A stretch of 60,433 bases of DNA, counting the filler, from Sluysia triapertura (taxonomy: Eukaryota): NCBI GenBank assembly GCA_046118255.1. It is 5 parts of 5 records of this genome, joined end to end, with 100 filler letters (N's around TTAATTAATTAA, not from the genome) between each part and the next. Parts side by side here need not be neighbours in the genome. Positions count along the whole stretch, not along the records: positions 37,206 to 49,169 come from JBJNIA010152050.1; 4 more parts are not named here. One strand, written 5' to 3'. Within the stretch, counting starts at the first letter, position 1; each line of letters opens with the position of its first letter. The notes under the pieces are model-generated. The model did no database searches. It had not been told where the DNA came from and saw only the letters and a program-made list of their open reading frames with translations. Both the position numbers and the translations under genes were made by a program. Of this stretch, positions 10,171 to 60,120 are shown in pieces.

Positions 10171-10323
10171 AGACCTAAAGTGCTACAAAATAATGATAGT
10201 GTAATTGACTATAATAAAACAAAATTGTTAGACGGGGCAGTGATCAGAGCATCGAACTGCACAGCTGTGAAGAGAGAAGTGCCGGGTTCGATTTCCGGTC
10301 AGTTCATTTATTGAAGTCTAATA
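10171..10323 (+). mobile_element. tRNA-cassette mini-LTR family, degenerate copy A
   Basis: Shares the upstream AATTGACTATAATAAAA(C/T)AAAA..AGACGGG, a B-box GGTTCGAT and the 3' GAAGTCTAA with 59291-59447. The A-box region is partly deleted. Confidence 0.7.
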
Positions 10324-10899
10324 TTTAAAAACTTAGAACGTGTGCAGAATCGGCTTTAAAGTCATTTGAATTATTAAATATGAATTTTAATGAGTTCGGT
10401 CGTATAATCATTGAACTATCAGCCCAATGTAACAATTTATTTTCATTATCAACAACAATTTTTAAAAGTTGTAATTAAATAAGTGGGCTAAGTAAATTTT
10501 GTTTTTTGTAAAACCATTATGTTTTATAATTTTATAATTCTTCACGGACTGCATCAAGCATATTCACTATGTTTTCTTATACGAATTTTTACGGGAAATT
10601 TTACCAGAGTCAATAAATGATTATCATTAAGTATTAAGTATTTTATATTGTCATTTTTTAGTTTGTATTTTATAAATGTTAACCAATCTTCCAATTGTTT
10701 TAATATAATACATTATTAGTTTCCTATTTTCAAAGATATTATGATTTGTGGTAAATGAAGTTAAGAACTATACCAAACTTAATAAATTGGAAAGTAAAAC
10801 AAATGTGTAGCCAAATAATTCTATGTATGTATGTCTTGTTTTTAGTTGATACTAAGTACAGAATATAGAATTTAAATGATTTTAAATTCTACTGATGAA

Positions 10900-12276: not shown

Positions 12277-12376
12277 NNNNNNNNNNNNNNNNNNNNNNNN
12301 NNNNNNNNNNNNNNNNNNNNTTAATTAATTAANNNNNNNNNNNNNNNNNNNNNNNNNNNNNNNNNNNNNNNNNNNN
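12277..12376. other. Assembly gap with synthetic all-frame-stop linker
   Basis: 44 N + TTAATTAATTAA + 44 N. The same construct occurs at 23792-23891, 37106-37205 and 49170-49269. Plain N gaps at about 17685-17813 and 58269-58402. Confidence 0.95.
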
Positions 12377-12870: not shown

Positions 12871-14475
12871 AAAAACGCGACAATAATCCAAACTTTTATG
12901 TATTTATTTTGTTTACCAAAAATATGACAAAGAACAAGAAAAATAGTAACTGCCCACAGAAATTAACATTTTATTGATAAAATTATATTTTTATTGTTTG
13001 TATAGAATTTCTAAATGCTGAACGATAATAAAAACATCGACGATAAATTCTCTATTAACAATTTATTATTTATTCAATTTTTATTAAGAATGCTCATATA
13101 TTAATCGATCGATTGATGAAATTGAATTCAACAATAAAGACTCCATGTTTAACAATAAAAGGCATCAATAATAGCATTAATTCTCGTTACAAAGATATAT
13201 CACATCAAATTCAACAAATAAACAAGAGAAAAAAAATATTATTTTTATGGTCTTATTATTTCATAGTCTTCAAGTTTGCGAAATATAATGCATTATTAAT
13301 AAAGTATTAATGATAACTTATATGCGACTATCAAATGGTTCTTTTAACATTTTCTTTGTTCGTGCGTTAAATTCTTCTATATGTTAGCATTCTTCTTCTT
13401 TACAATGAGATGTGATATCGGTAAAATTATTAATTGGCACATTATATAAAAAGGTATTATGTTTAGAGAAGATATGAAATTTCATTATCGTAATTGTTAT
13501 TAAATTTATTAAGTTACAATGAGAAGTTTGTTTTGTTATGTCAAGATTTTCAATCAAATTGTGTGTAAATAGGTGCTATTCCATATTTACAATTTACATA
13601 CAACATTCGGTGTATTTTAATTGAGATTTAATCTTAATCTTTTTGAATTTATGCAAGTGTGAAATTCACCACAAATGCTAAACGAAATTACGCAATTTGA
13701 GATTGGTTGTAAAACAATTAATGCTGAAGTTTATTTTGTAATAGTTCCATATTTTAAATGTAAACTTTAAAAATAAACATTATTCAAAAAATGTATTTAG
13801 ACATTCCCTGCCTACTTATAATTTACCATTTGTTGCATTTTATTGGTAGTAAAGTGATTCATTAAGAGTCATAAAAATAAAGTAGATTATTGATGATGTG
13901 AGTATAGGAGAATGTAAAAATGTAATGAAACGTGATTGAATGTGTAATATTAATGTTGGGATTTTTAGAGGATGATTTTTGGATTATGACAAACTTGAGG
14001 TAGATCATCCAGAATAAATAATTGTAAAAACGAAAATAGCTATTTGTAAAATTGATTTTACTGATAAGAAAATGGTTTTAATTAATTGCAAATTAATTAC
14101 GACTTTTAAAATCGACTTGGTTTATCATAAACTTGTAAATAATAATATTAGTAATTACGATATATTCAAAAACATTATATATAAATATGATGAAGTTTAA
14201 AATACAAGAAAAAATATTAATAAATAATTATCATTTAAAATCTATTGTAATATATATGTAGTTTGAATTTGAATTATTTATGATAATAATTACAACGTCG
14301 TAGAAACTTTATTGAAACATTCATTTAAAAAATGACATTAGAACAAGTAATCTCTATTGTTATATTAATTATATTTCAACAATTAAAAAGTGTAACGTAG
14401 CTTTATGAAATATTTATTGAAATTTTTACAAGTTATTTATCATAATTTGAATTGATTATAAGTGTAAAATAAAAT

Positions 14476-15246
14476 ATGCATTTATTTACTTTATTATGTT
14501 GGATAACAATAATTATAGAATTAATATGGACATACCAAGATACCAAATTACAATGTTGTTTTAATGCTTTCTTGAATAACAAAGATGTTTTTATTTATAC
14601 AAATCAAAAATGTTTAACTGCGACTGGATCAAATAAAAGTATGATATCAAATAAAGGAATTTATATTGGTAGTAAGAAACAGTTATTATTTCGAATTGTT
14701 TCAGGTAGTGGAATAAATCCATTAAGTATATATCAACAAAATTTCCAAATGAATTATAAAGATGATAAAGGTAATTTTAAAAGTGTCATACTTGAATTGT
14801 GGAATGATGTGAAACCGCAAATGATAATTGTAGAAGCTAAGAGTGATACTGGTATTGTATTAGTAAATATGACTTTTAATATTAATTCAACTGATACAAT
14901 ATTAACATGGTATAATTTGAATAATTTGGTATCTGTTTATCCATATGATATTAATATAATGAAAAGTCAAACTTATAATTATTTTAGTGTCACTGGGCAT
15001 ATTACTGACGATAACAGTACTGCGCAACGAGTATTTTATATTAATAACTTTTATGAAACTGGTGATACTGGATATTTTGTAATATTGCAAATAGTTGATG
15101 TTTGCGCATATTTTTCTCGTACTATAGTACCAAGTATAGTTTATACTCCTTATGGTGGTAGTCATAAATGGAATCAAGATTATAAATCAGCACAATACTT
15201 TGAACTAACTGGAATATATGAAGATAACGTTTATATGTTACCATAA
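14476..15246 (+). CDS. Intact single-exon 256-aa secreted protein with a conserved invertebrate extracellular domain of unknown function
   Basis: Longest ORF in the window, ATG to TAA, with a hydrophobic N-terminal signal peptide and a short PAN/apple-like Cys segment. Motifs LLFR..SG.G, FKS.IL..W, TWY, YFSV.G, R.FYIN..Y...DTGYF, C......P.I.Y resemble a domain I recall from marine invertebrate proteins. Confidence 0.8.
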   Translation: MHLFTLLCWITIIIELIWTYQDTKLQCCFNAFLNNKDVFIYTNQKCLTATGSNKSMISNKGIYIGSKKQLLFRIVSGSGINPLSIYQQNFQMNYKDDKGNFKSVILELWNDVKPQMIIVEAKSDTGIVLVNMTFNINSTDTILTWYNLNNLVSVYPYDINIMKSQTYNYFSVTGHITDDNSTAQRVFYINNFYETGDTGYFVILQIVDVCAYFSRTIVPSIVYTPYGGSHKWNQDYKSAQYFELTGIYEDNVYMLP

Positions 15247-18052: not shown

Positions 18053-19600
18053 ATGACAATGATGAACTTTTCGTTTGAGTTAATGGATTTCAAAGACGCA
18101 AAAAGTACAGTTATTGAAAAGAGACCGTCGTTATCTATAAAAGGTCGAAAAAAAGATTAAAATATGCAACTAAAAAGCCTGACCAAGATACCAATTACGA
18201 TAACTTAACCGACAATGAAGTAGATAAACTATTTGAATTATTTATGCGAAATATAAATATTCCAGTAATATTCCAGAGATAATTTACGTAGGTCTATTAA
18301 AATACAAATGATTCAAACTAATAAAACGATTGCTCAAAATAAAGGAGTTACTCATTGTGTTGAAAATTTAAAACAGAAATGTGAGAATAAAGAAATAAAC
18401 GCCGAATTCTTAGAAGATGCACGAATAATTATTCAGAATTCTACAATAAGTGTAATTAAAGAATTTGACAATGAAACTAATCACGGTGTTACTTTATTAA
18501 TAAAATTAATCGCTTCTATTCATGATAAACCTAATCTTCTGGAAATTAGTATGAAGTACTTGAAGGCATTTGGTAATTTTGGCTATGGTTTATTTACCAT
18601 GATTAAAATTGAGAATGCTTTGACCCATGTCACATTTACACTTTCAGGCACTAGTAACTTGAATGCTCTTGCAACAATGATAGAGATTTTGATGGTTTTT
18701 TTATTTTTATAGCAAAAGTGGTCATCCATATTTATTACAAGCTTTATTTGAAGCAAGCAGCTTGAAAAATCGTGGTCCTTTTGAACCTATTGTTAGAATA
18801 ATTCAAGAGCGTAGTCAAATTTTGAAAGAGAACTTAAATTTATGTTTCTAGTATATTCGTTTTGTCTACATTATCACAAACCCAAAATTTGTCAATCGTG
18901 ATTCTGATTTAGATTATTATTACAGAATGCATTTGAGACGGGAATTCGTTTTGTGTGGATTGGTCAAAGTTCATAATGATATATTACGAAATGTCTACGT
19001 ATCGCATGATATTAAATCGTATATTCAAAATTTTTATCAGGAAATTGAATGTGATGAATCTGAATACACTAGAGATGTTAAAAAATGATTTCAGAATTTG
19101 ATGATCCGATTCAATTGTTCCATCTTCTTAATAGCACTTGAGATTAAATTTGTAGTTATTACATCAATTCCATATTAGAGTCTCTTATGACAATCAAGAT
19201 TGTTCATGCTAGGATTTATTCGTATAAATTAGTAGATGCTAGCGTGACTGATTTAATAACTCAACTATCAGAAGACGAGAATTTCAACTTCGATCTGACT
19301 CATTACGGTTTTTACTGTATCAAATTAAAGGATTTGTATGATTATAAAAAGGACGATGAAATTTTTGATTTAATAGATGAACGAACTCAATTAAATATGA
19401 AATTAAAAGAATTACAAGTTGAAAATGATGTATTGAAAGAATCTTTGAAAGATGTGCCAAAACCTGATACTGCTCTTTCATAAGCTAGAGAAAGTTTGAA
19501 GAATTCTAAGGTTGATCATATTTCAACCAATCCTTCAACAATACGTCAAGCGACGGGAATTACGCGTAATTCAGTTATGTTATGGAAATTAATGCGCATT
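18053..19600 (+). pseudogene. Diaphanous-related formin N-terminal half (GBD/DID-FH3-DD-coiled coil), disrupted, with no FH1/FH2
   Basis: Collinear motifs LTDNEVDKLFELFMRNINIP; FLEDARII.....VIKEF...GVTLLIKL; YLKAFGNFGYGL; GHPYLLQAL...RGPFEPIV; DLDYYYRMHLRREF..CGL; EFDDPIQLFHLL; SILESLMTIK...RIYSYKLVDASVTDL. Several stops and frameshifts, and no polyproline. Confidence 0.8.
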
Positions 19601-21208: not shown

Positions 21209-21585
21209 CTGTAAATAATTAAATCAAATAATATGACTAATCATTTATAAGTATCAAATTTTTCATCTCTTAAAGTATGCGTAGATATTGTCTAACATAG
21301 CAAAAAGAACTTATCGAAATGTACAATTATAAGGTTTATTTGGCTTATTTATTTATCAATTTTATTTCGATCAATGATAAAAAATATCTCAACTCTTTTT
21401 CCGAGTACATAATAGCAGTATAATATGTAGATAAATTATGCAATTACTAATTGATATCAACCAGTAATCCTTACGTAAAAAGACATTGGTAAAATTTACA
21501 CATTCAGAACCTCACTTAGACAAATTAAAAATTATTTGTCATAAAATGTATTACTAATGCATGGACATGCAGAAAATAGCAAATT

Positions 21586-22310
21586 GTAATGTGACTAATA
21601 TATTTTGGCAAACAACTGGACTATGATTTTTATTGATTTATGTTCCTAATTGGTATTTTGTTAATTTATATGTATATTGGCAAACAATTGATTTATATTT
21701 TTGGAAATATTTTATTAATTTATATAATTTAATTTAGTCAGCCATTTAATTTTTATAGCCATCTTAAATTACACATTCATCAGTCAGCCATTTTGGTTAA
21801 TTCTGGTTATCTTATCAGCGCTATTACAATTTGGTATCGAACAACTTCGTCAAAGGATTTAATCATCGGATTTTGGTTCCATGAAAGAGTAAATTATTTT
21901 ATTATTTAGGCGATTTTAATTTCCTAAAATCAAGATCTTAAAATCAATTTTTAGTAAGGAACCCGATATATTGAGGGGAAATTTTACACTTGAATTTAAA
22001 CAGACCATTAGATCGAATATCCCAAAAGGATTTAGATCTCTTTTTATCTTTGATTTTGCCTTTATCTTTTATTTTACATTAGTGTATTTAATTTAATAAA
22101 TTTCAAGAATTTAATTAAGTCTTTATTCATTGTAATATTTTGAGACCATCTTAGCGTGTAAAAGTGATATTTTAAAGTAAGTTAAGTAAGATTTTCCACT
22201 TATAAGTTGCAGAGGTGACAACTACTAGTTGTAAGACGCTTACTGTAGCAGGATTCTGCTCAATTTTTTATTTTACCGTAGGTTTAGCATTAAGAAAAAC
22301 CACAGCAAAT
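21586..22310. repeat. LTR-like repeat family R3
   Basis: Block GTT(G/A)CAGA..TG.CAA...AGTTGTAAGACG.TTACTGTA...GGA..CTGCTCAA...ACCACAGCA is shared with 43083-43153 and partly with 53581-53618. Left boundary is a guess. Confidence 0.5.
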
Positions 22311-23302: not shown

Positions 23303-25659
23303 GTGTTGCAACCTAACACAAAGGATTATTGTAATTTATATCAGATATTGATAGGAAATAGTATTAGACTATACCCTGATGCAGGTATTCTATACAAAAA
23401 AATAAAAACTAAATACTAATTGATTATTTTTGGAAAACATTTATTTTATGATTTTTCTGTGATCTTCATTTACATCGCATAAATAATCGAATTTGGAATA
23501 ATTTTCTATTAATGTTAATCAATTTATATTAATGCCATACTTAAACTCGCATAGTAAAATGCGATACAGAAACCTAATTTTATATTTACAAAGTTTATTT
23601 CTGTACAATGTTTGGTTTTATACAAGTTTCAGATTCCCTCTAAGAAATAGTAGTAAAACATTAAATTATATACATTTGTAAGTAAATAAAACTTTAGTCA
23701 TTTAAAAATAATTTCATTTCTAATTTAAAATAATTTTATTTTTATTTCCAATTTAAATTAACAATAATAATAATAAGAAAAAATAATAAAANNNNNNNNN
23801 NNNNNNNNNNNNNNNNNNNNNNNNNNNNNNNNNNNTTAATTAATTAANNNNNNNNNNNNNNNNNNNNNNNNNNNNNNNNNNNNNNNNNNNNTATATATAT
23901 ATATAAGAAATTATGTTAAAGAACGCACAACATTAAGACAGAAAGTTTTTAAAAAATATTTTAAAAGTGCTCTATCAGCGATTTTGACCAGAAAAGTTTA
24001 TCTTGACGAAAGAAAAAAGAACAGACATACTATTACAGCACCATTTTGGACGACTACACCAGAAGGATTATTCTAAAGGAAATAAATCGGTTACATTATC
24101 ACGAAACTATCATTACAGACTTTGGATACAATATTATATTGGATATTTGGAAACATTATTATTGTCAAAATTCAAAAGTAACAAAGTAAGATAATATTTC
24201 CAGGATTGCTTCAATAATTTTAGCTTTAAATTTAATACTTAAAATCATCAATTTGTTCAAAGCCCAAGTATTAGGCCTTGGTTAAAATCTTAATAAAATA
24301 GAAGTTCATTCTTTTTGTTTAATTTATTATTGTTATTATATTTATTTTATTATATTTTGCTTACGTTTTATAGTAAATCTTTGTTTTTAATTAGTTATTG
24401 ATGATAATTAAAAATTTTGCATTAATCAGTTATTAAGAAATAATTAAGAGTTTAATTGATTAATGAAATTAATTTTAACTAAACGATAAGTCTTTACAAA
24501 AATTAAAAAACATAAATTAAGTATAAACGCATAAGAATACAAGTAAGAGACACATTGCATATGATTTATTCGCTTTTTAAGATTAAGGCAACGTCTTAAG
24601 TGGCAATTTTCTGTGATACGTCTACTTCACGTATACCACCAACGCTCCCTAGTTAACTATAATTGTTAAGTTAATAAACAAGAGAAAAAACTAACAACAA
24701 TAATAAGTACAATTCCCGACTTCCTAGCAATTATTAAAATAATATAAAAAGAACCGCACAAAGAAAATTATTATAACAGTTAATACTTTTGGTGTAAGAA
24801 TGCTGATTCAATACAGTAGTGGCCAGGACTGATTGAATCTTACAAATCTTTAGAAATCGGACTAAATTTTATCTTTAAGCCAACTTATTTGTGGTTACTT
24901 GGGTTTTTACTATTTATTTATTGAATATTAGGTACTAACATTTGTTGCGTATTATAATTGAATTTTATTTTATTGAATAATTAATTATTATTGACTTAAT
25001 CATTATTTGATTGTTAAAAACTTTGTAAAAATAGTAATACCGATATGAAAATAAATGTGATAAATAAATAAAAATGACACCGATAATAATTATTTAACAG
25101 AGTAGGAGAGGTCTTTACTAAACTTAGCTTTAAAAATACAAAAATACTAAATTTGTACATTAGTTTAAATATTGCCTGACTACTCAGTTTCTCGGGTAAT
25201 GCATACAATATTCTTTGTCAATCAATAGTGCAGAACACCTACCATCTCAAAGTTGTGATTTAAATAAATAATTACTTTACTTTACTCCCACTCAAATTCA
25301 ATAATTTCATTTATAACTACACAAGTATAATATGCACGCGCATTTCATCTAATCTCACATTAAATTATGTATATGGTAACAGCACTGTATCATTTGTTCA
25401 TATGCCTACATATTCGAAATTTATGAAAATATATTTTATCCAATACTTGCATTGCAACAGAAACCACTACATATACGTGACTAATATTTATCTAAATTGT
25501 TTTAATTTCAATTCCTTGATTAACTATTATTGTGCGTCAGTATTATAAAATGCAGTATTAATTTTAGTACTATTAATGCATTCAAATAATCAATAATAAC
25601 TTATCACTAAATGAAAATGACGCATACAAATTAAGTTTATATGTATTTACGTATGCAAA

Positions 25660-26704
25660 AATGATGGGCTATAACCTAACCTACAATGCAAATACGCCTA
25701 GAAGAGTTCGACCTAACAAGAACGACTTAAGTCTGGACGACGGCGGCCTATTAGGATTTACTGTGTAAAAGATAGAAATGACAAAGGCTTAAGATAAGGG
25801 TTATTTTTGAATGATTTTTAACTTAAATAAATTATTAAATTCGATTGGTAAATTTAATGATTTTAAGTTAGCCTTTTTACGGTCTAACTAATAAAATTAA
25901 ATGTTAAATTAGCCTGTTACGGTCTAATTTTTTGAAATCAAAATGTTAATGTTATAATATTGAGCTATCCTTATTACGGTATAGCGTTCTTTACAATTTT
26001 AGTAAATAACAAATTTAAAATACACAGTTATATTACTACAATAAAAGAATTAGATTATATAGAAGTAGTGGTTACTGATAATAATAATAATAATAATAAG
26101 GATTTTATTTAGCTTAAATTCAATTGAATTTAGCTTTCAATATTTTAGAATTAAGTTAACTTATCCTTTACGGTATAAGTTTTAAAAACTAAAAATTAAT
26201 TTAAGTTAAATTTTGCCCCTCCCTTCTTACGGTGAGGAGAATAAAATCCTACTAAAAAATAATCTTACTAATTGCATGGATTTTCTTTGCTGGCTGAAGA
26301 TTTTTCTGAACAATATTTTACCAAAAACAAATACTGGTTTCAACCCACAAATTGTTGGTTTTTTATATCCAATTTTTGTTTCTAGCTTCCATATTGTTCA
26401 CACGTAATTTTATTGATTTAAATAAACAAAAATTATTTTTTAAAACCAAAAATATTTTTTAATACTTTTATTTTAAATTATTTAGATTAAAAATATCTTT
26501 TAATACTTTTAGATTATTTAATAATATTTTTTGTTTATTTTACATTTTTATAATATAATAATAATTTTATTTATAAAAAAAATTTTTTATAATTTTTTAT
26601 AATATCATAAATAATAATTAGTTAATAAATAATAATATTAGTCAATTAGTTATAAAAAAATCACATTTATAATTCTTCACAATATTCCAGTCAGTTTCTT
26701 CACA
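25660..26704 (-). mobile_element. Solo-LTR-like element H1 with a 5-hairpin array
   Basis: Approximate TGATG...TTCACA limits, no TSD found. Same layout as 28236-29304. Hairpins at 25866-26237. Confidence 0.45.
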
Positions 26705-27639: not shown

Positions 27640-28235
27640 ATCGCTTAAAATAAATCATTCACCGTAATATTTCTGAAACAAAAAGAACTTTGCCTTTTTC
27701 TTAAATATTTCTTAATCTTCAAGTAATTTTACATTCTCCGGTTGTACATTTTTGAGACAAACGGTATACAACTTATCACCTAGCTTGTTATCACTGTGGA
27801 TTCTGCATAGATTATCATGCCTCAATGAAATATTCATCTTGCTTTCCAATTTTCGTATTATTTCTAAAAGATATTCGGGACTTCCATAATGTAAGTATTT
27901 GTAAATTATTGTCATGATTTTGAATTCTATTCTTGCTTTTATTGAAAACTAATTTAATTCTTTAAGATAAGGTGTTACATGAGATCTTCCAACGTGGAGA
28001 ATTAGTCTTGCTGCTGGATTAATTATTAATTGTAATTGTTTCACTTTTCTATCTGAAATTGAGTACAACAAACCATTGCTAAAATCTATGTTGCTAGTTA
28101 TCAATGAATGAACAATAAGTTTATTCGAAATTAATAAAATTTCGAATTTTTGATATCTTATTTAATTTATATTTATACTTTTAACAATACATTAATATTT
28201 TCTTCCATGTTCATTTTTGAATCCATATAACAACC
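27640..28235 (-). mobile_element. L2-clade LINE ORF2, 3' part
   Basis: GCYMDSKMNMEENIN; LIVHSLITSNIDFSNGLLY...KQLQLIINPAARLI...SHVTPYLKELN*FSIKARIEFKIMTIIYKYLHYGSPEYL is the canonical L2 post-RT region. Confidence 0.85.
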
Positions 28236-29304
28236 TGATGCGAGATTTTCTATTAAAAGACTTAAAACTTATTGCAAATTATCTGAGAAGTCGGTTCGCC
28301 TAATATATACGATTTATACCACTAATTGGAGACCTACTACTAGGTTTTCTTAATTATACTTAACTAACTTTTAACTTATGACTTAAGTCTTATTAATTTA
28401 TACGACAATCCTTTACTAGGTGTTGTTTAATTAAACTGTTATATTTTCTATTTACGCAACCCGTATTAAGATGTTGCTTTCTCAAAATAAATATGTTTCG
28501 CAACCCGTATTAAGGTGTTGCTTTACGAAACGAATTTTAAATTAATAACAAAAAAACACTTAGAATCCTTAAGGTATATAAACAGAACTTACAAAAAATA
28601 GCGTATTATAAGAATAATATTTTAGTCAACTACTCAATTTCAGTTGGTAGTTTTTTAAATATTTTAAAAAGATTTTCCGCAACCCGTATTAAGGTGTTGC
28701 ATCAAAATAGAAATAGTTTAAGTGTATTTTAGGTTTCCTTTCTTAAAGTGAAACCATAAAACATATTAAAATAAGAATTACTTCTTATGCATGGAATTGA
28801 AATATTAAAAATGTTCTTCTGGAACTTCGGATTAATAAAAAATTTTCTTCTGGAATGTTAATTTGAAATTCTAAAAAATTCTCTGGTTGTTATCTAAAAT
28901 TTTGTTCTAAATATTTTATGCTAAAACTTACCCATTTATACTTAATTTATTCCAAGATGTCTTCCAATAAATTGAAACATTGAAACAATAACTTTTGTTC
29001 AATTTAATTTCTTTTATATTTCTATTAATTTTATTTTAATTTCTTTTATATTTATTTAATTTCCATTAATTTTAATTTAATTTCTTAAATTTACTATTTA
29101 TTTTAAATTTTATTATTTATAGTTTAATTATAAAATTTAATTAATTTTATTTAATTAATTGATTTCAATTCTATTATTATTAAAATTATATTTTGAATAT
29201 TTGATTTAATATAATAATATATTTAATATAATAATAATAAATATTTAATAATTTTACATATTAAACATATTTAAGTTACATATTAAACACGTTTAAATCC
29301 AACA
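28236..29304 (-). mobile_element. Solo-LTR-like element H2 (1069 bp) inserted in the L2 LINE, with a 5-hairpin array
   Basis: TGATG...CAACA termini. Removing it rejoins the L2 motif KVRNI-G-CYMDS. TATAAATGGG on the minus strand at about 28931-28940. TSD is not intact. Confidence 0.75.
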
Positions 29305-29540
29305 CTATATTTCGTACCTTTTGTTTTGCATCTAGTTCTTACTACCTAGAATTAACTTTGCTTCATTTCTTTTGGCATTGTCGCTTTATTATTACTAAAG
29401 ATTATAAATTCTGACTTTTCTTCATTGATTTTCAAGTATTTACTTCCAAACCATTTTATCAATTCAGATACTAGTTGTTCTGTTCTTTGAATAGTATTTT
29501 CTATGTTATTCATTTCATAAATTCTCTTGCAAAATATCAT
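29305..29540 (-). mobile_element. L2-clade LINE RT C-terminal part
   Basis: LVSELIKWFGSKYLKINEEKSEFIIF (W...N.LKLN..KTE....) followed by KVRNI. Confidence 0.85.
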
Positions 29541-42400: not shown

Positions 42401-43189
42401 TATTTGTGTTAGGATGTCATCACAACCCTATAAAATAATTCAAAAATGTCAAATGTAACCTTAAAATTATTATAAAATATTTAAATCGTCAAAAAATTAA
42501 TTAAAAGCATATCAAACATCTTAAAACCATTTATTAATTTTTAAAATTACTTAAGAAACAATTATTTTCCAAAAAAGAAAATAAAATTTCTAAAATAGAA
42601 AATTAGCTTCTACAAATAGTTTAGAAGCTTCTGGAATTTTCTAGAATATTTTCGAATATTCCATCTATTTTCATTGGATGATGACTAGTACATAAACTGA
42701 CATCTTATAATGAAAATCGCCATTTTGGTAATCACAAAATTTGGTAATTTTATGCGATCAATTTTGCGTTCTATCAAATTTTTGGTAATTTATATATTTG
42801 ATAAGGGAAATTTTAACTTTTGAAGTTAAAATCATAAACTCCACGTAAATTCTAAGAGCACCTGATTAAATGCGTTAATCTTTAAATTAATTATTTTTAT
42901 CCTTGCAATCTATTATTTTATTTCTAAACTATTTGAATTTTTGTGTTTTTGAATAAATGGATTAGTGTTTTTTACATCATTAAATTATTAAATTATTGAA
43001 TTAAATATTAAATTATTTAGTAATTGTAAGACCCTCAAATTAATTTGGTAGTTACTTTTTTAAGTGATCTTTTAATTTATTCGTTACAGAATTGCCAATG
43101 ATACGTTGTAAGACGTTTACTGTAACCGGACCCTGCTCAAAGAAACCACAGCATTTCTGTGAATAACTTTTGAATGAGGAATGCTATGT

Positions 43190-44261
43190 TAAAATTGTAA
43201 CTATACATGAATGTGTTTTAATGGATATAAGGATTGACCGAGTTCGTGCGAGGAAAGCCTCCATATTGAGCAAAGTCGATTAAAAAGAATCCGTATAAAA
43301 ATGACATTGGTACTATTTTTATCATGCCTCCCAATAATTTACTTCGACCGGTTTCTAAAGATTTAGTGTTTGCTATTCATATAACAGATTATGATGACAT
43401 TCGACATTGTTGCTCAAAAGCAGATGTTTGTAAAAAATGTTGGTCTTTGATGACTGCAGGAATGAAGATATTGCATCGTATTCTAACTGAAGACTTTGTT
43501 TTCAAACATTTTGTGGCAATCATTGTTGGGTTTCTATAAAAGAGAGTTTTTTCTGCTGCTGTACAAGATAAGGAAAATTGTGTCTTGAATATAGAAAAGA
43601 TTAAACCTTTTGAGATTCTAACAATGAATTTAAGAGTAAAGTCTATGCCAAACAAAGCTCCACTAATTAACTCATCTGAGTTAAACAAGGACGATAAAGA
43701 TAAGTGTAAAAATAGCTCGGAGAAGTGCCCAGTGTAGTGATTTCCGTAATGAACAAAAAGCAAATAATATGTTCAAGATTTTAATGTCTGTTCGATCTGT
43801 TACTGTTAATTCAATCCATCGCAAATAAGTCCACGATTTATCAGGTATAGATGTTTGTTGTGAACCATTACTTTGTCCTTAGACAGCTTACCAAGTTGGT
43901 GAATGTACAAAATTCGGAACTAAATGCGTGTATGTACACAGTGTTAATCAACTGTGCATTCCGAACGGATCATCTCATTAGACTTACAGATTTATTCGTA
44001 AGCATTGGAGTAACAACTCCAGAGATACTTGATGACATTATTTTTGTTGGTAATAATAGGATAAATATTTTTTACGATTACATTAAAGATATTTTGACTT
44101 TTGATTCTTTTTCAGATAGTGAAGCGTGGTTATCAGAAAACACTATATGCGGACCAAACTCTATGAAAATTCAACTTTTTAAATTTGATATAATAAATAA
44201 AATTTTGTCTACAGATTCTCATTTACTGTTTATAAACTTCAAATTTTATCATTTTGCTTAA
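43190..44261 (+). mobile_element. L1/Tx1-like LINE ORF2 remnant, multiply deleted
   Basis: KRVFSAAVQDKENCVLNIEKIK...DDKDKCK is homologous to the 48780-49045 translation. Also YTVLIN, LDDIIFVG (YADD-like) and W...KIQLFKFDIINKILST (L1/Tx1 C-terminal pattern). Confidence 0.55.
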
Positions 44262-45462: not shown

Positions 45463-46702
45463 TATGCGGTGGCTCAACTCATAATATATAATTTTATTGT
45501 TTCCACAACATACAATTACAACATAACTTATAAAACATACATAACAAAACTTCTAATTTTAATCATTCTGTTACGTCTTTATTTTGTTACTTATAACAAT
45601 AATTTAATAGTAAAGTAAACATAACTTAAAATCTTCCTGAATTTTAATAATTGTTAAAATCTATTATAAATTATCACAAAGAATTTTCTTTACCAATAAT
45701 ACAAATCAATTTATAACTTTAATGAACCTTTATTTCTAACAAATATGTCTTAATTCCTTTATTATAACTTTAAAATAAATAAAATCAAAAGATACAACTT
45801 TAATTATAATCAATATAAGGTAATTGCAATAATATTCTAAGTATTCTAAATATTTTTTGTGTCTAATAAAATTATTATCAATCTAATATTCAAAACTAAT
45901 TCCACAAATCATTAATTCAAAATAAAATAAGAAAAATAAACAAAATGATAATAAAAATAAAAATAAAATATAAAAATAAAATGAAAACGAGGAGTGACGT
46001 AACACTAAGTAAATATTAACTATTTCACGCTTATTCCTTAATAATAATTAAATGTAAATTTCCCCAAAGCAACCAAAAAAACGCTATTTTAATAAAATCC
46101 CCCAAATGTTATATTATTTCAATTATTAAAATAATTAAATTCTAAAATAAAGTAAATTCAAATATTACTTAAAACATGGATATTATCATTTATATCACTA
46201 ATTGTTGCTGTTGTTGTGTGTAAAATCTTTCCAGTATTCCAATTTTAATTCTCTCATCATCCAATCACTTTGAGGTAAACTATCAAACAATCTCTCACAC
46301 AAATTATTAGAATATTCTTTGAAAATTAGATCGATAATAACAACTGTGACAATTACACGGTATAGTTTGACAAACTTTATTAGGTACTAATCGATCAATT
46401 TTTACTTAAATTACTTCTCATATTAAAATAACAATAACCAGCATTTTTAACATACATAAAAATAATGAACTCAATATTTGTTTCTAGTATTTAATTGCTT
46501 TTAAGTTTTTCACACCCAATTTTCTAATGAAAAATGTTTGAGGTTCTTATTTACAAAAAACCATTTTACAGAGATTTCAAACTCAGCTCTAGATTCTCTT
46601 CTTTCATAGCAATCACCTCATATTCAATTCATTATATTTTCATCATTCATCATATTGAGAAAATATATGTTTGATTAAATAATTTAAAGTTATGATACCA
46701 CC

Positions 46703-48239
46703 TGCGATCCTAGTCTTACGTTTTGCGTTAGACTGTATGATTTTTAACGGTTAAGAATGTGGAATAAGACAATGAAGGTAAATTACGAAATTCGATTAAG
46801 TTTATTAACACTTCGTGTTAATCATAACGGAAATTCTATTGAGGAGCCTTAAAACAGTGAATGTTAAATTAGAATATTGATTCGAAATCCACTTCAGAGC
46901 GAGGTTAAATTAGTTTCCGCAGGATAGCGAGTTTAAATTTAAATTGGATTTTACTTACGTTCTTTGTAAATAGAACGTGTAACAAAATAGGACTTTAAAT
47001 ATAAAATAACAACGTAGTAACGAGGATTTTAATAGAAATTACAACTATATAATTTTACAATTTATCGTTGATCTGTTTTAAAAAGATCAAATAAAAGAAG
47101 ATTTTATATGATTACTCCAGATTTGATTTAAAAATTCTTAGTAATAATTAAATTTGATAAAATTTTGATATTAATGGTGTTATAAATGGTGATCATATAT
47201 AAAATTGTTAGACTTCATAAAATGGACTGACGTAAATCGAACATGAGCCTCTTGCTGCTCAGTTCGATGATTAAAAAACATGTATTAATATAATGGTTTA
47301 AGTCTCTTCTCTTTTGTTAATAGAAGTAAGGTAAAATAGAAGTAAAATAAAATAATTATTTTTATTATATTAGCATAAATTTTAATAAAATATTAACTTA
47401 AATATTTTTACATTTTTAATTTTAACTTAAAAAATAAATTTTAAAATTAATATAAATATTTTTCATAAATTTTAAATAAGTATTATTTTAAAAAGATTTT
47501 CTTTATTTCGCAAAGGATTTGGTGATTAAATCAATTAAATTAATTCGAATAAGTTTCAACATGGCTAAGGCCTAATTAATATAAATAGCAATAATTTTTT
47601 AGGAAAGAAAATTTTAAATTTTTAGAAGAAGTAAATTTATTAAAGAAAATCTTTTTACCGAAGACGATTTATTCGCCGTTTCCATGCAAAAGTAATTTTG
47701 TTTAATAATAATATTCATCTTATAGGAGAATATTCAAATCAACTTAAATTCATTAATTTTTTATGCAAGACCTTAAAAAGCCTTGTGATAATAATTTTAA
47801 AATCTGGATGCCACCAACTGAGGTTGAGTCTGCTAATAAATTATTATTTTTATTATAATTTAGTTGATACTTTTGAGCTCCTTTTATAAGTGTTTTGCAT
47901 AAGCGTTATAGTAATTTGTATAAGCGTGTTTAGTAACATACTTTAAGAAATTTATTTAGTTTTTATTATTAAATCAAAATCATTTTCATCAATAGTGCAA
48001 TTTCTAAAGACCTTAAAAGGCTAGAGTAATTAATTAAAATCTTTGAATAACTTTTGTACAAGACCTTAAAAAGGCTTGTGTGATTTATATTTATTGAACT
48101 AGACCTTAAGAAGGCTAGTGTAAAAATAATAACATAATTTAAAGTAATTAGATTTGAAAGAGTTAATTTTCAAGAAGCATAGCTGTGTTTAATTAAGTTT
48201 AATTAAGAGAGTAAGGTTTAATTTCAAGGACTTGTAACA
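46703..48239 (+). mobile_element. Solo-LTR-like element H3 with a 4-hairpin array
   Basis: TG(CGA)...TAACA limits with flanks CACC/TACC (TSD with 1 mismatch, tentative). TATAAATGG at 47181. Hairpins at 47765-48119. Confidence 0.5.
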
Positions 48240-48289
48240 TACCCACTTTAAGTTTAGTCTAAGTTTAAGTTTTTTGATAAGTTTAAATC

Positions 48290-49045
48290 CTAATAGCATA
48301 TCTCCAGAATTGATATAAAGCGTGTGTATTTGGCGAATCGACCCTCAGTTATTTTGTAAGTGCAAGTTCATTTTAAGATAAAACACTTGGATAAGTTTTT
48401 CCTGCAGTTTTTCTTGGAGATCAGCATACTTCGCAATATTTGTAGTTATCTCGAAGGCCAGAATATGATGTTGGCAGATTTATCATATTAGACAAATCTG
48501 TAGACAATTTGTTGTAGTCTATCGAAGGCAGTGCCGATGAGGGTTATGTCGTCAGAATATGTCAGGTATGGAGGAAATTTTAGTGATTTTGATATACTCA
48601 TCATCCGTGAACTGACGACAGATAATTATCATGGACAATGGACATCTTTGTTTCACTTCATGAATGAAATATTATTTTTTACGGACATTAAATTCTTGGA
48701 TATATCATTAGAATATTGTCATTTATGAGGATCAGTATGATGATATACTGAACATATCTCCAAGCCTTTTTACATTCATCTTTGTCATCCTTATTTAATT
48801 TGTAGAGCATTATTTGAAATTAAGTTTAAGCTTGCATTTATTGTTAGTAACTTACAAGATTTGATCATTTTTATATTCAATAAATTATCTTCTTTAGCTT
48901 GTATAGCGGTCATAAACATTCTTTTGCATGGCTTAGAGTAATCATAAACTATACCAGTAACTATTGGTGCGAGCTTTACATTTTGATTTAGATCAATCCA
49001 ATCAATACGACTAATTATATTTCCTCCTACTCGAAAACTCAACAT
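48290..49045 (-). mobile_element. L1/Tx1-like LINE ORF2 remnant, same family as 43190-44261
   Basis: ISRIDWI (end of APE endonuclease), KRMFMTAIQAKEDNLLNIK..DDKDECKK, YLTYSDDITLIG (RT YxDD). Confidence 0.6.
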
Positions 49046-49269
49046 CCCTTGTATAGGGAACTCGTCATACGGTACTCACCATAATTCATCATATAATATT
49101 CACTATAACTCATCTCATATAGTTCATCACAACTCATCACTTAAAAACGATACACGCATACACAAACTANNNNNNNNNNNNNNNNNNNNNNNNNNNNNNN
49201 NNNNNNNNNNNNNTTAATTAATTAANNNNNNNNNNNNNNNNNNNNNNNNNNNNNNNNNNNNNNNNNNNN

Positions 49270-51223: not shown

Positions 51224-51344
51224 AATTAAAAAATACGCACATACATCTAATAATTATACTTTAATTAAAATTAAATTTGAAATATAATAATAATGGTTAC
51301 ATCATCATCATTATTATTATAAAATAAAATAAAATCGTTAGACG

Positions 51345-51415
51345 GGGCTGATAGCTCAGTGGTAGAGCATCGACTGCGCAGACAGAGGTCCCGGGTTCGA
51401 TCTCCGGTCAGTCCA
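51345..51415 (+). tRNA. tRNA(Ala)-like pseudo-tRNA inside mini-LTR copy B (element ends at 51432)
   Basis: Acceptor GGGCTGA/TCAGTCC with G3:U70 and A73, D arm GCTC/GAGC, T arm CCGGG-TTCGATC-TCCGG, then TTTT. The anticodon stem does not pair. Confidence 0.7.
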
Positions 51416-52440
51416 TTTTACGAAGTCTAACATTATTATTATTATGGTTATGTTGAAAATTTAAATATGTAATTTGAAATTACGTTGGCGCATAGTATTC
51501 ATATAAGTTACATTTATATATCAGATTATCATGGATGAAATTTGTAGCAAAAAAGTTTTCTTACTTAATTCCTGTACAAAATTATTTAATCAACGGTTCG
51601 TCTTTAGCATACTATTTATGAGGCGAAACTCAACATATCTATTTGTAGGCAAATACAAATTATCAACATATTAAAATCTACGAATATCTATTACTTCAAT
51701 ACTTTGATATAATTAATAAAAACATATAATGAATAAATACGTTAAAGCTAACACTAAATTAGCTGGGAAATACAGAATGAATTTAAGAAGTCGTAATAGA
51801 AATTAACAGATTAATATTATATCCAAGAAATATTAACGTATTGAATCTTTTAAATTAATACTAATTGTTTAATTTTAATTATAGGTTAAACTATCTTTAA
51901 AAATTAATATATTTTATCTGGATTTTATATTTCCTCCTTCCTTTAAAGAAGAAGAAACTTATAAAAATTAAACATACTACTTGACACGGAAAAAAATTTG
52001 ATGTTACTGAAATGGATCTTGATAAAACGAACGTCGTGAGCCAATTAATTTGATTAAAACTAAGTCGAACTTGATTCGACCAAGTTGTTAATGCCGATTT
52101 ATTGGATTAAGAATTAGGATGAATCTCTTGCACTAGTAGCCGAATTTTTAATTTTGTTGTAACTTATAAGAATGAATTCTTTATGTATTTTTTTGATATA
52201 AAATGATTTTTATGTTCAATTTTGCAAGATATATTATTACTTTATTATTACAAACTATTTATTATTATTTTATTGTTTTTTACGTAAAATTTTATTACTA
52301 TACATAAAAATTCATAAATAATTTTTTATTATTTTCATTATTTACATAAATATTGTGCATTATTATTCCAAAATTTAATTATCATTTTACTGTCGATAAA
52401 CAATCTATCAGTCATTACATTACAAATATAAAGAAATGTT

Positions 52441-52998
52441 TTATTCATCGAAATATGAACCCATATTATTTAAACATTTTTGCCATTTAAGCAGTAGGTT
52501 GTTCAAGCCGGTAATATAATTAATTCCTTGAAAATCCGTTTTACAGCATTGTCGAATTAAATTGTTTTCCTACTTATAAAAATGTCCAAACTGCGGAAGA
52601 AATGCTAGTCAGTGGGAGCATGGGGGATGCTGAAGATTTCTAATTCCTGTAATTTTGAGCAGCATTATCATGCAATAAAATAGAAGTACATTTGTTGACT
52701 AATCTAGGCTGTTTTCTTTAGGTTTTTGCTGTTTATTTCTTCTGTGATCGATGACCCAAGTTTCATGAAATCATAATGGATCGCAGCTGTGCTAGCAAGG
52801 CAAAGACTCATCAGCTTCTTTTGTAGAATATAGCGCTTTCGAATGTGTTTTGGTGATTTATCCTTGTCCTTAACTTTTACGATTGTCATACTGGATCTAT
52901 TCCTCATCACAAGTGACATCTCGATTCAAAAATGAATGAGATTCGTGACTAAAAAGCAACATCAAGCAAGTTTTCAAACGCTTTTGTTTCTGTTTTTC
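52441..52998 (-). mobile_element. mariner (DD34D) transposase remnant
   Basis: FLNRDVTCDEE*IQYDN, ILLHDNA, HPP..APTD*HFFRSL, KWQKC....GSYFDE*. Confidence 0.9.
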
Positions 52999-55924: not shown

Positions 55925-56036
55925 ATTGTCATAAATATTATTGTTAATTTTGAAATTTACTTATTTTTCATTTAGTTTACTTGTATTATTGTTAAAGCAG
56001 AAACTTATATTAACGATTTGTATTTGATTTTGTAAT

Positions 56037-56191
56037 TGTTATATTTATAACAATGGACTGACCGGGGATCGAACCCGGGACCTCTCGCTGCGCAGTTCGA
56101 TGCTCTAATACTGAGCTATCATCCCGTCTGGGAATTTTATTTTATTATAGTCAATTTTACCAAACGGCATTTTAGGCCTTTTACTCCAACA
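56037..56191 (-). mobile_element. tRNA-cassette mini-LTR copy D (155 bp, full length; tRNA-like part about 56054-56124)
   Basis: Minus strand reads TGTTGGAG...TAACA; flanks TAAT/TATT; intact B-box GGTTCGATCCCC. Confidence 0.8.
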
Positions 56192-58849: not shown

Positions 58850-60120
58850 AATAATAATAATTATAATAACAATATTAAATTTATTTATAATAAGAGGTCT
58901 AGCCCGAATTTGTAAGTGACCTTAATGGCCAACTGAAAATTAGGTATTTTACGTGGAGATTTTAACTCTAGTGAGTTTTCACTTTATTTAAAATAAACTT
59001 ACTATTCAATCAATAAATTAATAAACGATGAGCGAATATTCGAGATAGGAGGATTGTTTTTGTTTGCTTAATTGGTCGGATATGAGAGAATTTGGAGCTG
59101 AGATATCTTTAATCGAATACGCGAGATCTAATTCTGCTTTGTAATTGATTTGAATTGCTACGGCCGTTGAATACCAAAAAGAAACCGAAACGATGATTTA
59201 AATTAACTGCTTGAATTAGTAAAATGACGATTATCAAAATGGTCGTCTGTTATCCTTTGTTTGTCTTTATATAGTTTTTGTACCTATAAATGTTGGGGTA
59301 AAAAGGCCTAAGGTGCCATTTGATAAAATTGACTATAATAAAATAAAATTCCCAGACGGGACTGATAGCTCAGTGGTAGAGCATCGAACTGCGCAGCGAA
59401 AGGTTCCAGATTCGATCCCCGGTCAGTCCATTTTATGAAGTCTAACATAAAGACGCATATATTAAAATTAATTCATTAAAATTATTCCTTGTTCTCGATT
59501 ATTTTCGATAATTTAAATTCTTTATAATTAGATTTTTTTATAATTTTTATAATTGTTAAAGAAAATAATAATCATAATTTTTTGTTATTTTTTAATAATT
59601 TTTATAATACTTTATAAGATTTTTGAAAATTTTTTAAATACAAATAAAATATAAAATATAAAACAAAAAAATAAAATTTTTTACATATTTACACATTTAT
59701 TATTATTATTTTGTTTATTAATTATTATTAGCATTATTATTGTCACTATTATAATTATTTGTAATCACCGTAACTGTCAGTTTTGACAGCTTTTAATTAA
59801 TCAGTATTTCATTTACTGATAATTGTTATTACAAAATTTTTAATTAGTTTTATGTTGAGGACCTTAACAACAAAATTAGTTGTCTGTTTATTGGCCATTA
59901 CTATTCACTTTGTTCCTGCTTTCAATGGCCAACGAATCACAATACATTTGCAATTTATGTACAATCACAAAAATAATGGCTCACTTTTTAATTAACTAAT
60001 GCACGAAATCACATTTAATAATAATTATAATAACAATATTAAATTTATTTATAATAAGAGGTCTAGCCCGAAGACTCTACCTGCTGATAATGATTTTGTA
60101 ATTGACCTTAATGGCCAACT
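58850..60120. repeat. Pair of ~85-100-bp direct repeats (58850-58934 and 60017-60120)
   Basis: AATAATTATAATAACAATATTAAATTTATTT.TAATAAGAGGTCTAGCCCGAA...TTTGTAA.TGACCTTAATGGCCAACT occurs in both. Confidence 0.85.
59291..59447 (+). mobile_element. tRNA-cassette mini-LTR copy E (157 bp, full length, 4-bp TSD; tRNA-like part 59359-59430)
   Basis: TAAA|TGTTGG...CTAACA|TAAA. Perfect 7-bp acceptor GGACTGA/TCAGTCC, A-box TAGCTCAGTGG, B-box-like TTCGATCC, TTTT terminator. Confidence 0.85.

Follow-up and report, generated by a model that had tools for sequence, protein, structure and literature searches.

We found that the DNA of Sluysia triapertura analysed here, a stretch of 60,433 nucleotides that we call the window, contains three arrays of small hairpins (H1, H2 and H3), and that these hairpins are real and form an apparently undescribed structural array, with a putative function, within a single old lineage of repeats. 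Each hairpin is 20-22 nt long and is built of 5 bp, a bulged A, 2 bp (CC/GG in most cases) and a loop of 5-7 nt, giving a stem of 7 bp. When both strands were scanned for the perfect motif (5 bp + A + CC + 5-7 nt + GG + 5 bp), nine were found in the 60.4 kb, eight of them within the three arrays. In 30 block-wise dinucleotide shuffles, perfect motifs had a mean of 0.1 and a maximum of 2 per window, and near-perfect motifs never exceeded 2 per 400 bp. A looser scan of the window, which accepted any paired upper stem with a C, returned ten perfect bulged-A hairpins, all ten inside the arrays.

The five hairpins of every array follow a 2+3 layout and are spaced at 59/194/57/40 in H1, 54/179/44/51 in H2 and 53/240/53/40 in H3 (Table 1). 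A preliminary description of this DNA had reported hairpins at 48058 and 48098 with degenerate copies at 47765 and 48003, in an array oriented opposite to H1 and H2; we recover all of these, with H3 on the plus strand and H1 and H2 on the minus strand. Its count of 4-5 units over about 350-370 bp needs adjustment, as there are five in each array and the spans are 372 bp (H1), 350 bp (H2) and 408 bp (H3). The loop is 5-7 nt long in 15 of 15 hairpins, and the bulged A is likewise present in 15 of 15, but was demanded by the scan. Loops have the form K-T-A-A.., and their letters T-A at positions 2-3 are nearly constant across the three subfamilies that H1-H3 represent (see below), as is the bulged A, at 49-58% identity among the units. 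All H1 loops begin GTAA, and most H2 and H3 loops are UUAA.. in RNA letters. The first hairpin of H3 (47712), absent from the preliminary description, and that of H2 (28754), which has the upper stem CT/AG, came to light by aligning the units. Between hairpins 2 and 3, at about 47935-47950 (+) in H3 and about 28575 (-) in H2, lies what may be a sixth motif, decayed and with TTAA as a four-base loop; in H3 it adjoins a depth peak at 47939-47980.

Table 1. Coordinates of the three units, their hairpins and neighbouring features (positions along the window).
Feature	Position	Strand	Remarks
H1 unit, five hairpins	25642..26681	-	alignment, covariance model
H1 hairpins	26238, 26179, 25985, 25928, 25888	-	motif scan, alignment, covariance model
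H2 unit, five hairpins	28243..29302	-	insert in L2-type LINE RT frame
H2 hairpins	28754, 28700, 28521, 28477, 28426	-	motif scan, alignment, covariance model
Decayed L2/CR1-type LINE RT frame, interrupted by H2	27727..29510	-	P0151 E 3e-14; RVT_1 E 0.09
H3 unit, likely solo LTR, TG..CA ends	47178..48385	+	collinear with H2/H1; boundaries +/- about 25 bp
TATAAATGG	47181..47189	+	5' edge of H3 unit, chance frequency
High-copy tRNA-containing short-repeat fragment inserted in H3	47207..47269	-	blastn to 59382-59447 and 56034-56102; X1 depth spike
Upstream TATA-like site	47581..47590	+	counterpart of H2 28940, H1 ~26369; AT-rich context, weak
TCCATGCA	47681..47688	+	kept in all three units right before the array (H2 28795, H1 26280)
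Hairpin 1 of H3	47712..47732	+	fully paired; upper stem TC/GA replaces CC/GG
Hairpin 2 of H3	47765..47786	+	degraded in H3 copy
CCAACTGA..TTGAG, distinct small conserved hairpin-like block	47814..47829	+	H2 28646, weaker in H1
Hairpin 3 of H3	48003..48025 (start 48003/48005)	+	degraded in H3 copy; covariance model E 0.58
Hairpin 4 of H3	48058..48079	+	perfect
Hairpin 5 of H3	48098..48119	+	perfect
Conserved 3' block	48289..48350	+	CCTAATAG, TATAAA (48314), Inr-like TCAGTT (48345)
H3 right flank, multi-copy, possibly decayed non-LTR RT	48386..49053	-	homologous to 43540-43791

Pairing has been kept in these hairpins while the letters change. Over the 15 hairpins, 98 of 105 pairs are Watson-Crick and three are mismatches; G-U pairs number three on the bulged-A strand and one on the other strand. 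The 5' lower stem takes 13 different forms among the 15, and the upper stem varies on both sides (CC/GG, TC/GA, CT/AG). In an alignment of ten hairpins with seven-nucleotide loops, 97% of cells pair and five of the seven pairs change on both sides. The covariation score of this alignment was reached by 0 of 500 shuffles, and slid controls paired at 23-46%; the test is biased upward, and therefore overstated, because the hairpins had been picked for pairing, and it covered ten of the 15, namely the ones then known to have 7-nt loops. A covariance model built from the same ten found three of the five held-out hairpins at E≤0.015 and one at 0.58, missed hairpin 1 of H3 (47712) at E≤5, and had no match outside the arrays of the window below E 2.5. 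Neither the looser scan of the window nor the covariance model gave a further copy of the hairpin beyond the three units. The motif is conserved in structure and common to a clade of repeats. To this extent the clade-wide reading of the preliminary description is supported, given the 98 kept pairs and 13 different stems, but it does not extend across unrelated families.

We also compared the hairpins with each other. Similarity is 0.65 within a unit and 0.55 between units (permutation p 0.0012), and the position of a hairpin in its array is without effect (p 0.50). The likeness within units implies that the arrays have been homogenised or re-duplicated inside subfamilies.

Are the three arrays carried by separate element families, as had been proposed, or by one? 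The preliminary description saw no obvious primary similarity among them. This does not hold: blastn aligns H2 and H3 at 62% identity over 618 nt (E 3e-33), and all three units are collinear over about 1.0-1.15 kb with the same two ends. Composition-aware local alignments gave z values against block shuffles of 29.6 for H3/H2, 11.5 for H3/H1 and 4.4 for H2/H1. With 13 of the 15 hairpins masked, the scores in the same order were 159, 85 and 101; shuffles reached at most 80, 66 and 70, and random pieces at most 92, 92 and 73. H3/H2 and H2/H1 thus stay above all controls, whereas H3/H1 is borderline, being above the shuffles but below the best random piece of the window. The pairwise alignment that the preliminary description had called for runs end to end, but the copies are old rather than recent, with global identities among units of 49-58% (the tRNA-repeat fragment inserted in H3 excluded).

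The units share a series of landmarks in the same order. Their 5' end is TATAAA-TG(G)TG-like, and an AT-rich stretch, TCCATGCA with GTAA after it, and hairpins 1-2 come next; these are followed by a CAACTGA block, hairpins 3-5, CCTAATAG and, in H2 and H3, a block with TATAAA and TCAG(T/A)T. By these alignments H1-H3 are old, diverged subfamilies of one repeat of about 1.1 kb, and the motif was inherited within a single lineage. A motif common to separate element families, or one host protein exploited by several such families, is thus not supported. Near a further TCCATGCA at 21565 there are no hairpins and no profile match that would mark a fourth unit. The preliminary description had also drawn attention to TATAAATGG upstream of the array. 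It is present at 47181, but the 3 copies in the window compare with an expectation of 1.9 and are matched or exceeded in 33 of 100 shuffles, and in the pairwise alignment the H2 copy at 28940 has its counterpart near 47581 of H3 and not in the copy at 47181. Spacers of the form N44-TTAATTAATTAA-N44 at 12277, 23792, 37106 and 49170 join separate pieces of the window, so in the genome H3 may not be linked to H1/H2.

Other copies of the repeat were sought in sequencing data, where only one run (X1), probably the source, carries the stretch, with 322 contigs on 47540-48140; no RNA run is listed with the stretch, and this has no bearing on whether it is expressed. Summed contig depth in X1, which is not equal to copy number, is 398-513 at hairpin 2, 1,677-2,488 at hairpins 4-5 and 25-79 in three spacer bins, making hairpins 4-5 the best-covered part of H3 among the other copies. 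Hairpin 1 of H3 has a depth of 93 and no peak, and single long pieces have depths of 9-31. Two non-motif blocks, 47813-47854 and 47939-47980, are depth peaks as well; the CCAACTGA..TTGAG block peaks at 406-601. Variants of the 3' block are present in 74-90 contigs, and at the site of hairpin 3 of H3 a paired stem is seen in other copies. From the summed depth, the repeat family may number from tens to the low hundreds of copies. Among the rows listed in the X1 variant tables, which are unphased, the two partners of a pair change together: 18/21 contigs have changes at 48060/48077, and 1/4 have them at 47718/47727. The former change renders the stem identical to that of the neighbouring hairpin, and cross-mapping could yield it. 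On either side of the H3 region, at 46388-46648 and 49054-49160, lie very high-copy short repeats with a summed depth above 100,000 in X1. The tRNA-like short repeat that supplied the fragment at 47207-47269 (-) is also found at 51337-51433 (+), 59347-59448 (+), 56037-56125 (-) and 10226-10324 (+). It is bounded by inverted ends GTTAGAC..GTCTAAC(A), has Rfam tRNA matches, no ARAGORN gene and very high X1 depth; terminal inverted repeats around a tRNA-like sequence are unusual for a SINE.

On balance the units are probably solo LTRs of an LTR retrotransposon, as judged from their TG..CA ends, their length and the presence, some 40-70 bp before the 3' end, of a TATA/Inr-like block. The H3 termini, TGTTATA..ATAAAACA, are complementary at 6 of 8 positions; H1 and H2 have TG and CA candidate ends, the exact ends being ambiguous. 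A TATAAA followed 31-32 nt on by TCAG(T/A)T is present in two of the three units: in H2 the two elements are at 28318 and 28286 (TCAGAT), and H1 is without TATAAA here. The spacing from TATA to Inr in H3 and H2 is about 2-4 nt above the textbook value. This 3' block is likely a putative LTR core promoter. Further upstream, the 5' segments of the units are about 80-87% A+T and contain 4-6 TATAAA apiece. Compared with the terminal motifs TGTNATRT and AYANAACA given for Mag C in the accessible part of PMC3601003, the H3 termini match at 7/8 and 8/8 positions, and TCAGTT in H3 matches the Inr consensus TCAKTY from the same source. A TGTAACA at 48234-48240 was considered as the LTR end and rejected, since it is not kept in H1 and H2.

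The flanking duplications are not clear-cut. The 5-bp flanks of H3 agree at 3 of 5 positions, H2 has none at its homology-based ends, and H1 has one 6/6 candidate (26665..25642) chosen from many end pairs. On the bulged-A strand, AATAAA occurs 0 times in the 3' segment of each of the three units, and no PBS, PPT, gag or pol could be tied to any of them. H2 is a discrete insert of about 1,070 bp in one LINE RT frame: the RT protein P0151 (PF00078) matches its downstream flank (E 3e-14), residues 168-217 and 274-413 fall on the same strand at 29510-29367 and 28128-27727, and the DNA gap between them is 1,238 nt, as opposed to a protein gap of 168 nt.

The right flank of H3 contains, by eye on the minus strand, YxDD-like and QGCPLS-like words, which we take to be RT motifs; searches of Pfam, PHROGs and PDB and comparison with P0151 gave no support for an RT or ORF. 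Six of nine variants synonymous in one plus frame had suggested an ORF of the element itself, a reading dropped because the RT-like words read on the minus strand and H2 ends at the matching point. A host-like DNA primase small-subunit (PriS) fragment lies at 43270-43536 (+; PF01896 E 2.6e-7; 1,047 relatives at E≤0.001), followed, one stop on and in frame, by a stretch homologous to 48681-48925 on the minus strand. A primase-bearing element as part of the system was rejected, PriS being a short host-like piece and the window holding no more primase sequence. Neither the PriS piece nor a stop-free L2 piece had a match in protein searches, and the atlas search returned unnamed or weak matches only.

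Most of the window has a G+C content of 20-29%, and only two of its frames reach 150 aa. It carries LINE, mariner and tRNA-derived repeat remnants, indicative of an animal genome. Its longest open frame, at 14473-15246 (+), encodes 257 aa with a hydrophobic N-terminus and has no Pfam match at E≤0.1. A formin FH3-like fragment lies amid short frames at 18269-19480 (+; PF06367 E 2.2e-5 at 18852-19085), and a mariner-type transposase fragment at 52707-52925 (-; PF01359 E 6.6e-5). Around 22340 (-), a PBS-like TTTGGTATCAGAA after ..GAGCA is possibly the 5' end of a different LTR element; 21827-22263 resembles 42721-43140, and 1-1030 is an inverted homolog of 45548-46537.

What might the arrays do? 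The array quite probably works as RNA on the bulged-A strand, with the G-U pairs favouring that strand by just 3 to 1; folding energies are alike on both strands, and pairing is equally good on either. We tentatively suggest, as a possible rather than an established role, that the five hairpins are a multivalent platform in U3, at the 3' end of the genomic RNA, for an element-encoded binder acting in export or packaging. Should the TATA/Inr-like block at 48314/48345 be the promoter, the array would be upstream of the start site, in U3. A U3 array would be transcribed from the 3' LTR only and would sit at the 3' end of the genomic RNA, where a protein encoded by the element would bind the five compact hairpins together, and the bound array would lead to nuclear export or packaging of the element RNA. 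Recombination to a solo LTR would leave the array functionless, which fits the decayed hairpins of these copies. We suspect that the binder is element-encoded, because loops and stems are specific to subfamilies.

The same LTR-like unit and RNA hairpins could instead serve one host RNA-binding protein, acting in transport, localisation or stability for the whole lineage. The near-constancy of the bulged A and of the core loop letters T-A over three subfamilies at 49-58% identity would suit such a binder, and retroelement RNAs do employ host adaptors, such as Egl-BicD (PMC13186709, in its accessible part). We consider it unlikely, since loops and stems are subfamily-specific and the window has no motif copy beyond the three units. 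Moreover, according to the same portion of that paper, Egl recognises stems that are long and bent, with bulges on the 3' strand and U-A pairs, and 5'-strand bulges are off its sites; the 7-bp stem here has a 5'-strand bulge, if the bulged-A strand is the RNA. One fixed host protein accounts less well for the likeness of hairpins within a unit than a subfamily-specific binder or repeated local duplication does. Local duplication could also be neutral, which would account for this likeness, or the repeats could belong to a U3 enhancer, as sites for factors that bind double-stranded DNA and of the CArG-like form CC(W)6GG: hairpin 3 of H3 contains CC(W)6GG, and tandem enhancer repeats are described as frequent in U3 in the accessible part of PMC3601003. 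Both seem very improbable, because the length of the spacer ranges from 5 to 7 nt, paired changes affect even the CC/GG core, and complementarity persists across 13 different flanking stems, a pattern that neither a sequence-specific DNA binder nor neutral drift explains.

The remaining alternatives concern the unit rather than the binder, and each appears improbable to about the same degree. Were transcription to start after the upstream TATA-like site (about 47581 in H3), the array would fall in a long R or 5' leader, where it would act as a TAR-like element or, placed after a splice donor, as a packaging signal. All three units have a TATAAA about 90-145 bp before TCCATGCA and a putative splice donor, GTAA (GTAAG/GTAAT), directly after it; with 4-6 TATAAA in each A+T-rich 5' segment, however, upstream sites weigh little, and the best-conserved promoter-like block is downstream of the array. 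The unit might also be a non-LTR terminal repeat or a non-autonomous element (DIRS/Ngaro, Crypton, Helitron-like, Penelope pLTR), its hairpins forming on single-stranded DNA or the opposite strand. This would suit the lack of a clean target-site duplication and of AATAAA, the 6-bp direct repeat that flanks one H1 end pair, and the equally good pairing of both strands. A hammerhead ribozyme in the terminal repeat is a feature of Penelope pseudo-LTRs, TC..CTRR ends with a terminal hairpin mark Helitrons, and terminal inverted repeats mark MITEs. The Rfam matches of the window and the units include no hammerhead, the units have no other match at or near gathering score, and the end sequences of the units show neither TC..CTRR ends with a terminal hairpin nor terminal inverted repeats; all three units, in addition, share the same two ends.

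The closest parallels in position are export elements of mammalian betaretroviruses. The RcRE of HERV-K(HML-2) is, in the accessible part of PMC6916052, a structured RNA in the LTR U3 that is contained in RNA from the 3' LTR alone and left in solo LTRs, and the MMTV RmRE is, in the sources as far as available, an export element located in U3. Unlike the five separate 20-22 nt hairpins described here, each of these is one large folded domain, and no Rec/Rem-like protein was found for the present units. Among animal Metaviridae (Ty3/gypsy), the H3 ends and the Inr-like TCAGTT fit the Mag clade as given in the accessible part of PMC3601003, but AATAAA, conserved in animal Metaviridae LTRs, is absent from the 3' segments of the units. 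The 3' ends of H1 and H2 fit less well, the units have no coding region that would place the family, and the portion of PMC3601003 available describes no hairpin array for Metaviridae LTRs. The Egl-BicD signals (K10 TLS, I-factor ILS) are similar in that several bulged stem-loops are read jointly and a retrotransposon uses them, but they have long bent stems, 3' bulges and spaced U-A pairs (PMC13186709, accessible part), in contrast to 7-bp stems with a single 5' bulged A.

In shape, the nearest parallel is the operator hairpin of the MS2 coat protein, along with dispersed packaging signals; the natural operator has the layout 5 bp + A + 2 bp. As laid out in the accessible part of PMC4403262, it shares with our motif a short stem, a bulged adenosine, a defined loop and variable stem letters, but it needs a four-base ANYA/ANCA loop, as opposed to 5-7 nt in all 15 hairpins. 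MS2 is an RNA phage without homology to the units, and the analogy is of shape only. By this analogy it is conceivable, if doubtful, that an invertebrate LTR retrotransposon lineage uses an MS2-like code of five compact bulged-A hairpins at the 3' end of its genomic RNA, in which subfamily loops would co-evolve with their own Gag or Rev-like protein and each subfamily would select its own RNA to be exported or packaged.

Searches for the motif elsewhere were negative. At gathering score, Rfam gave only three tRNA matches in the window, and E-value scans of the units gave five sub-threshold matches (best E 0.13). Paired-motif pattern scans returned 0, 2 and 7 loci in viral contigs and 76 in metagenome contigs; none of these 85 loci has an array of covarying stems, and the covariance model gave three single weak matches. 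No description of the hairpin motif was found in the literature on retroelement RNA signals, as represented mainly by openly readable papers. As a lineage guess we considered the planarian Burro elements, for which the accessible parts of PMC6431247 and bioRxiv 10.64898/2025.12.11.693146 mention no such array; for the yeast L-A packaging signal, the accessible part of PMC8780742 yielded no structure for comparison. The repeat family may be catalogued already, with its structure unnoticed.

At present, the array stands as a structural motif with good support, known from the decayed repeats of a single genome, and its role is putative. The hairpins, at 20-22 nt, of fixed shape, five per unit and with subfamily loops, are small enough for direct probing and mutation, and the covariance model can locate old solo copies that sequence search misses. 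To our knowledge, cis signals for the export or packaging of retrotransposon RNA have been mapped in few elements beyond yeast and mammalian retroviruses. If a protein of the element binds the hairpins, they would be a natural analogue of the MS2/PP7 tags; and if the MS2-like code is true, they would provide a discrete, portable recognition signal in a group where most signals for packaging and export have yet to be mapped.
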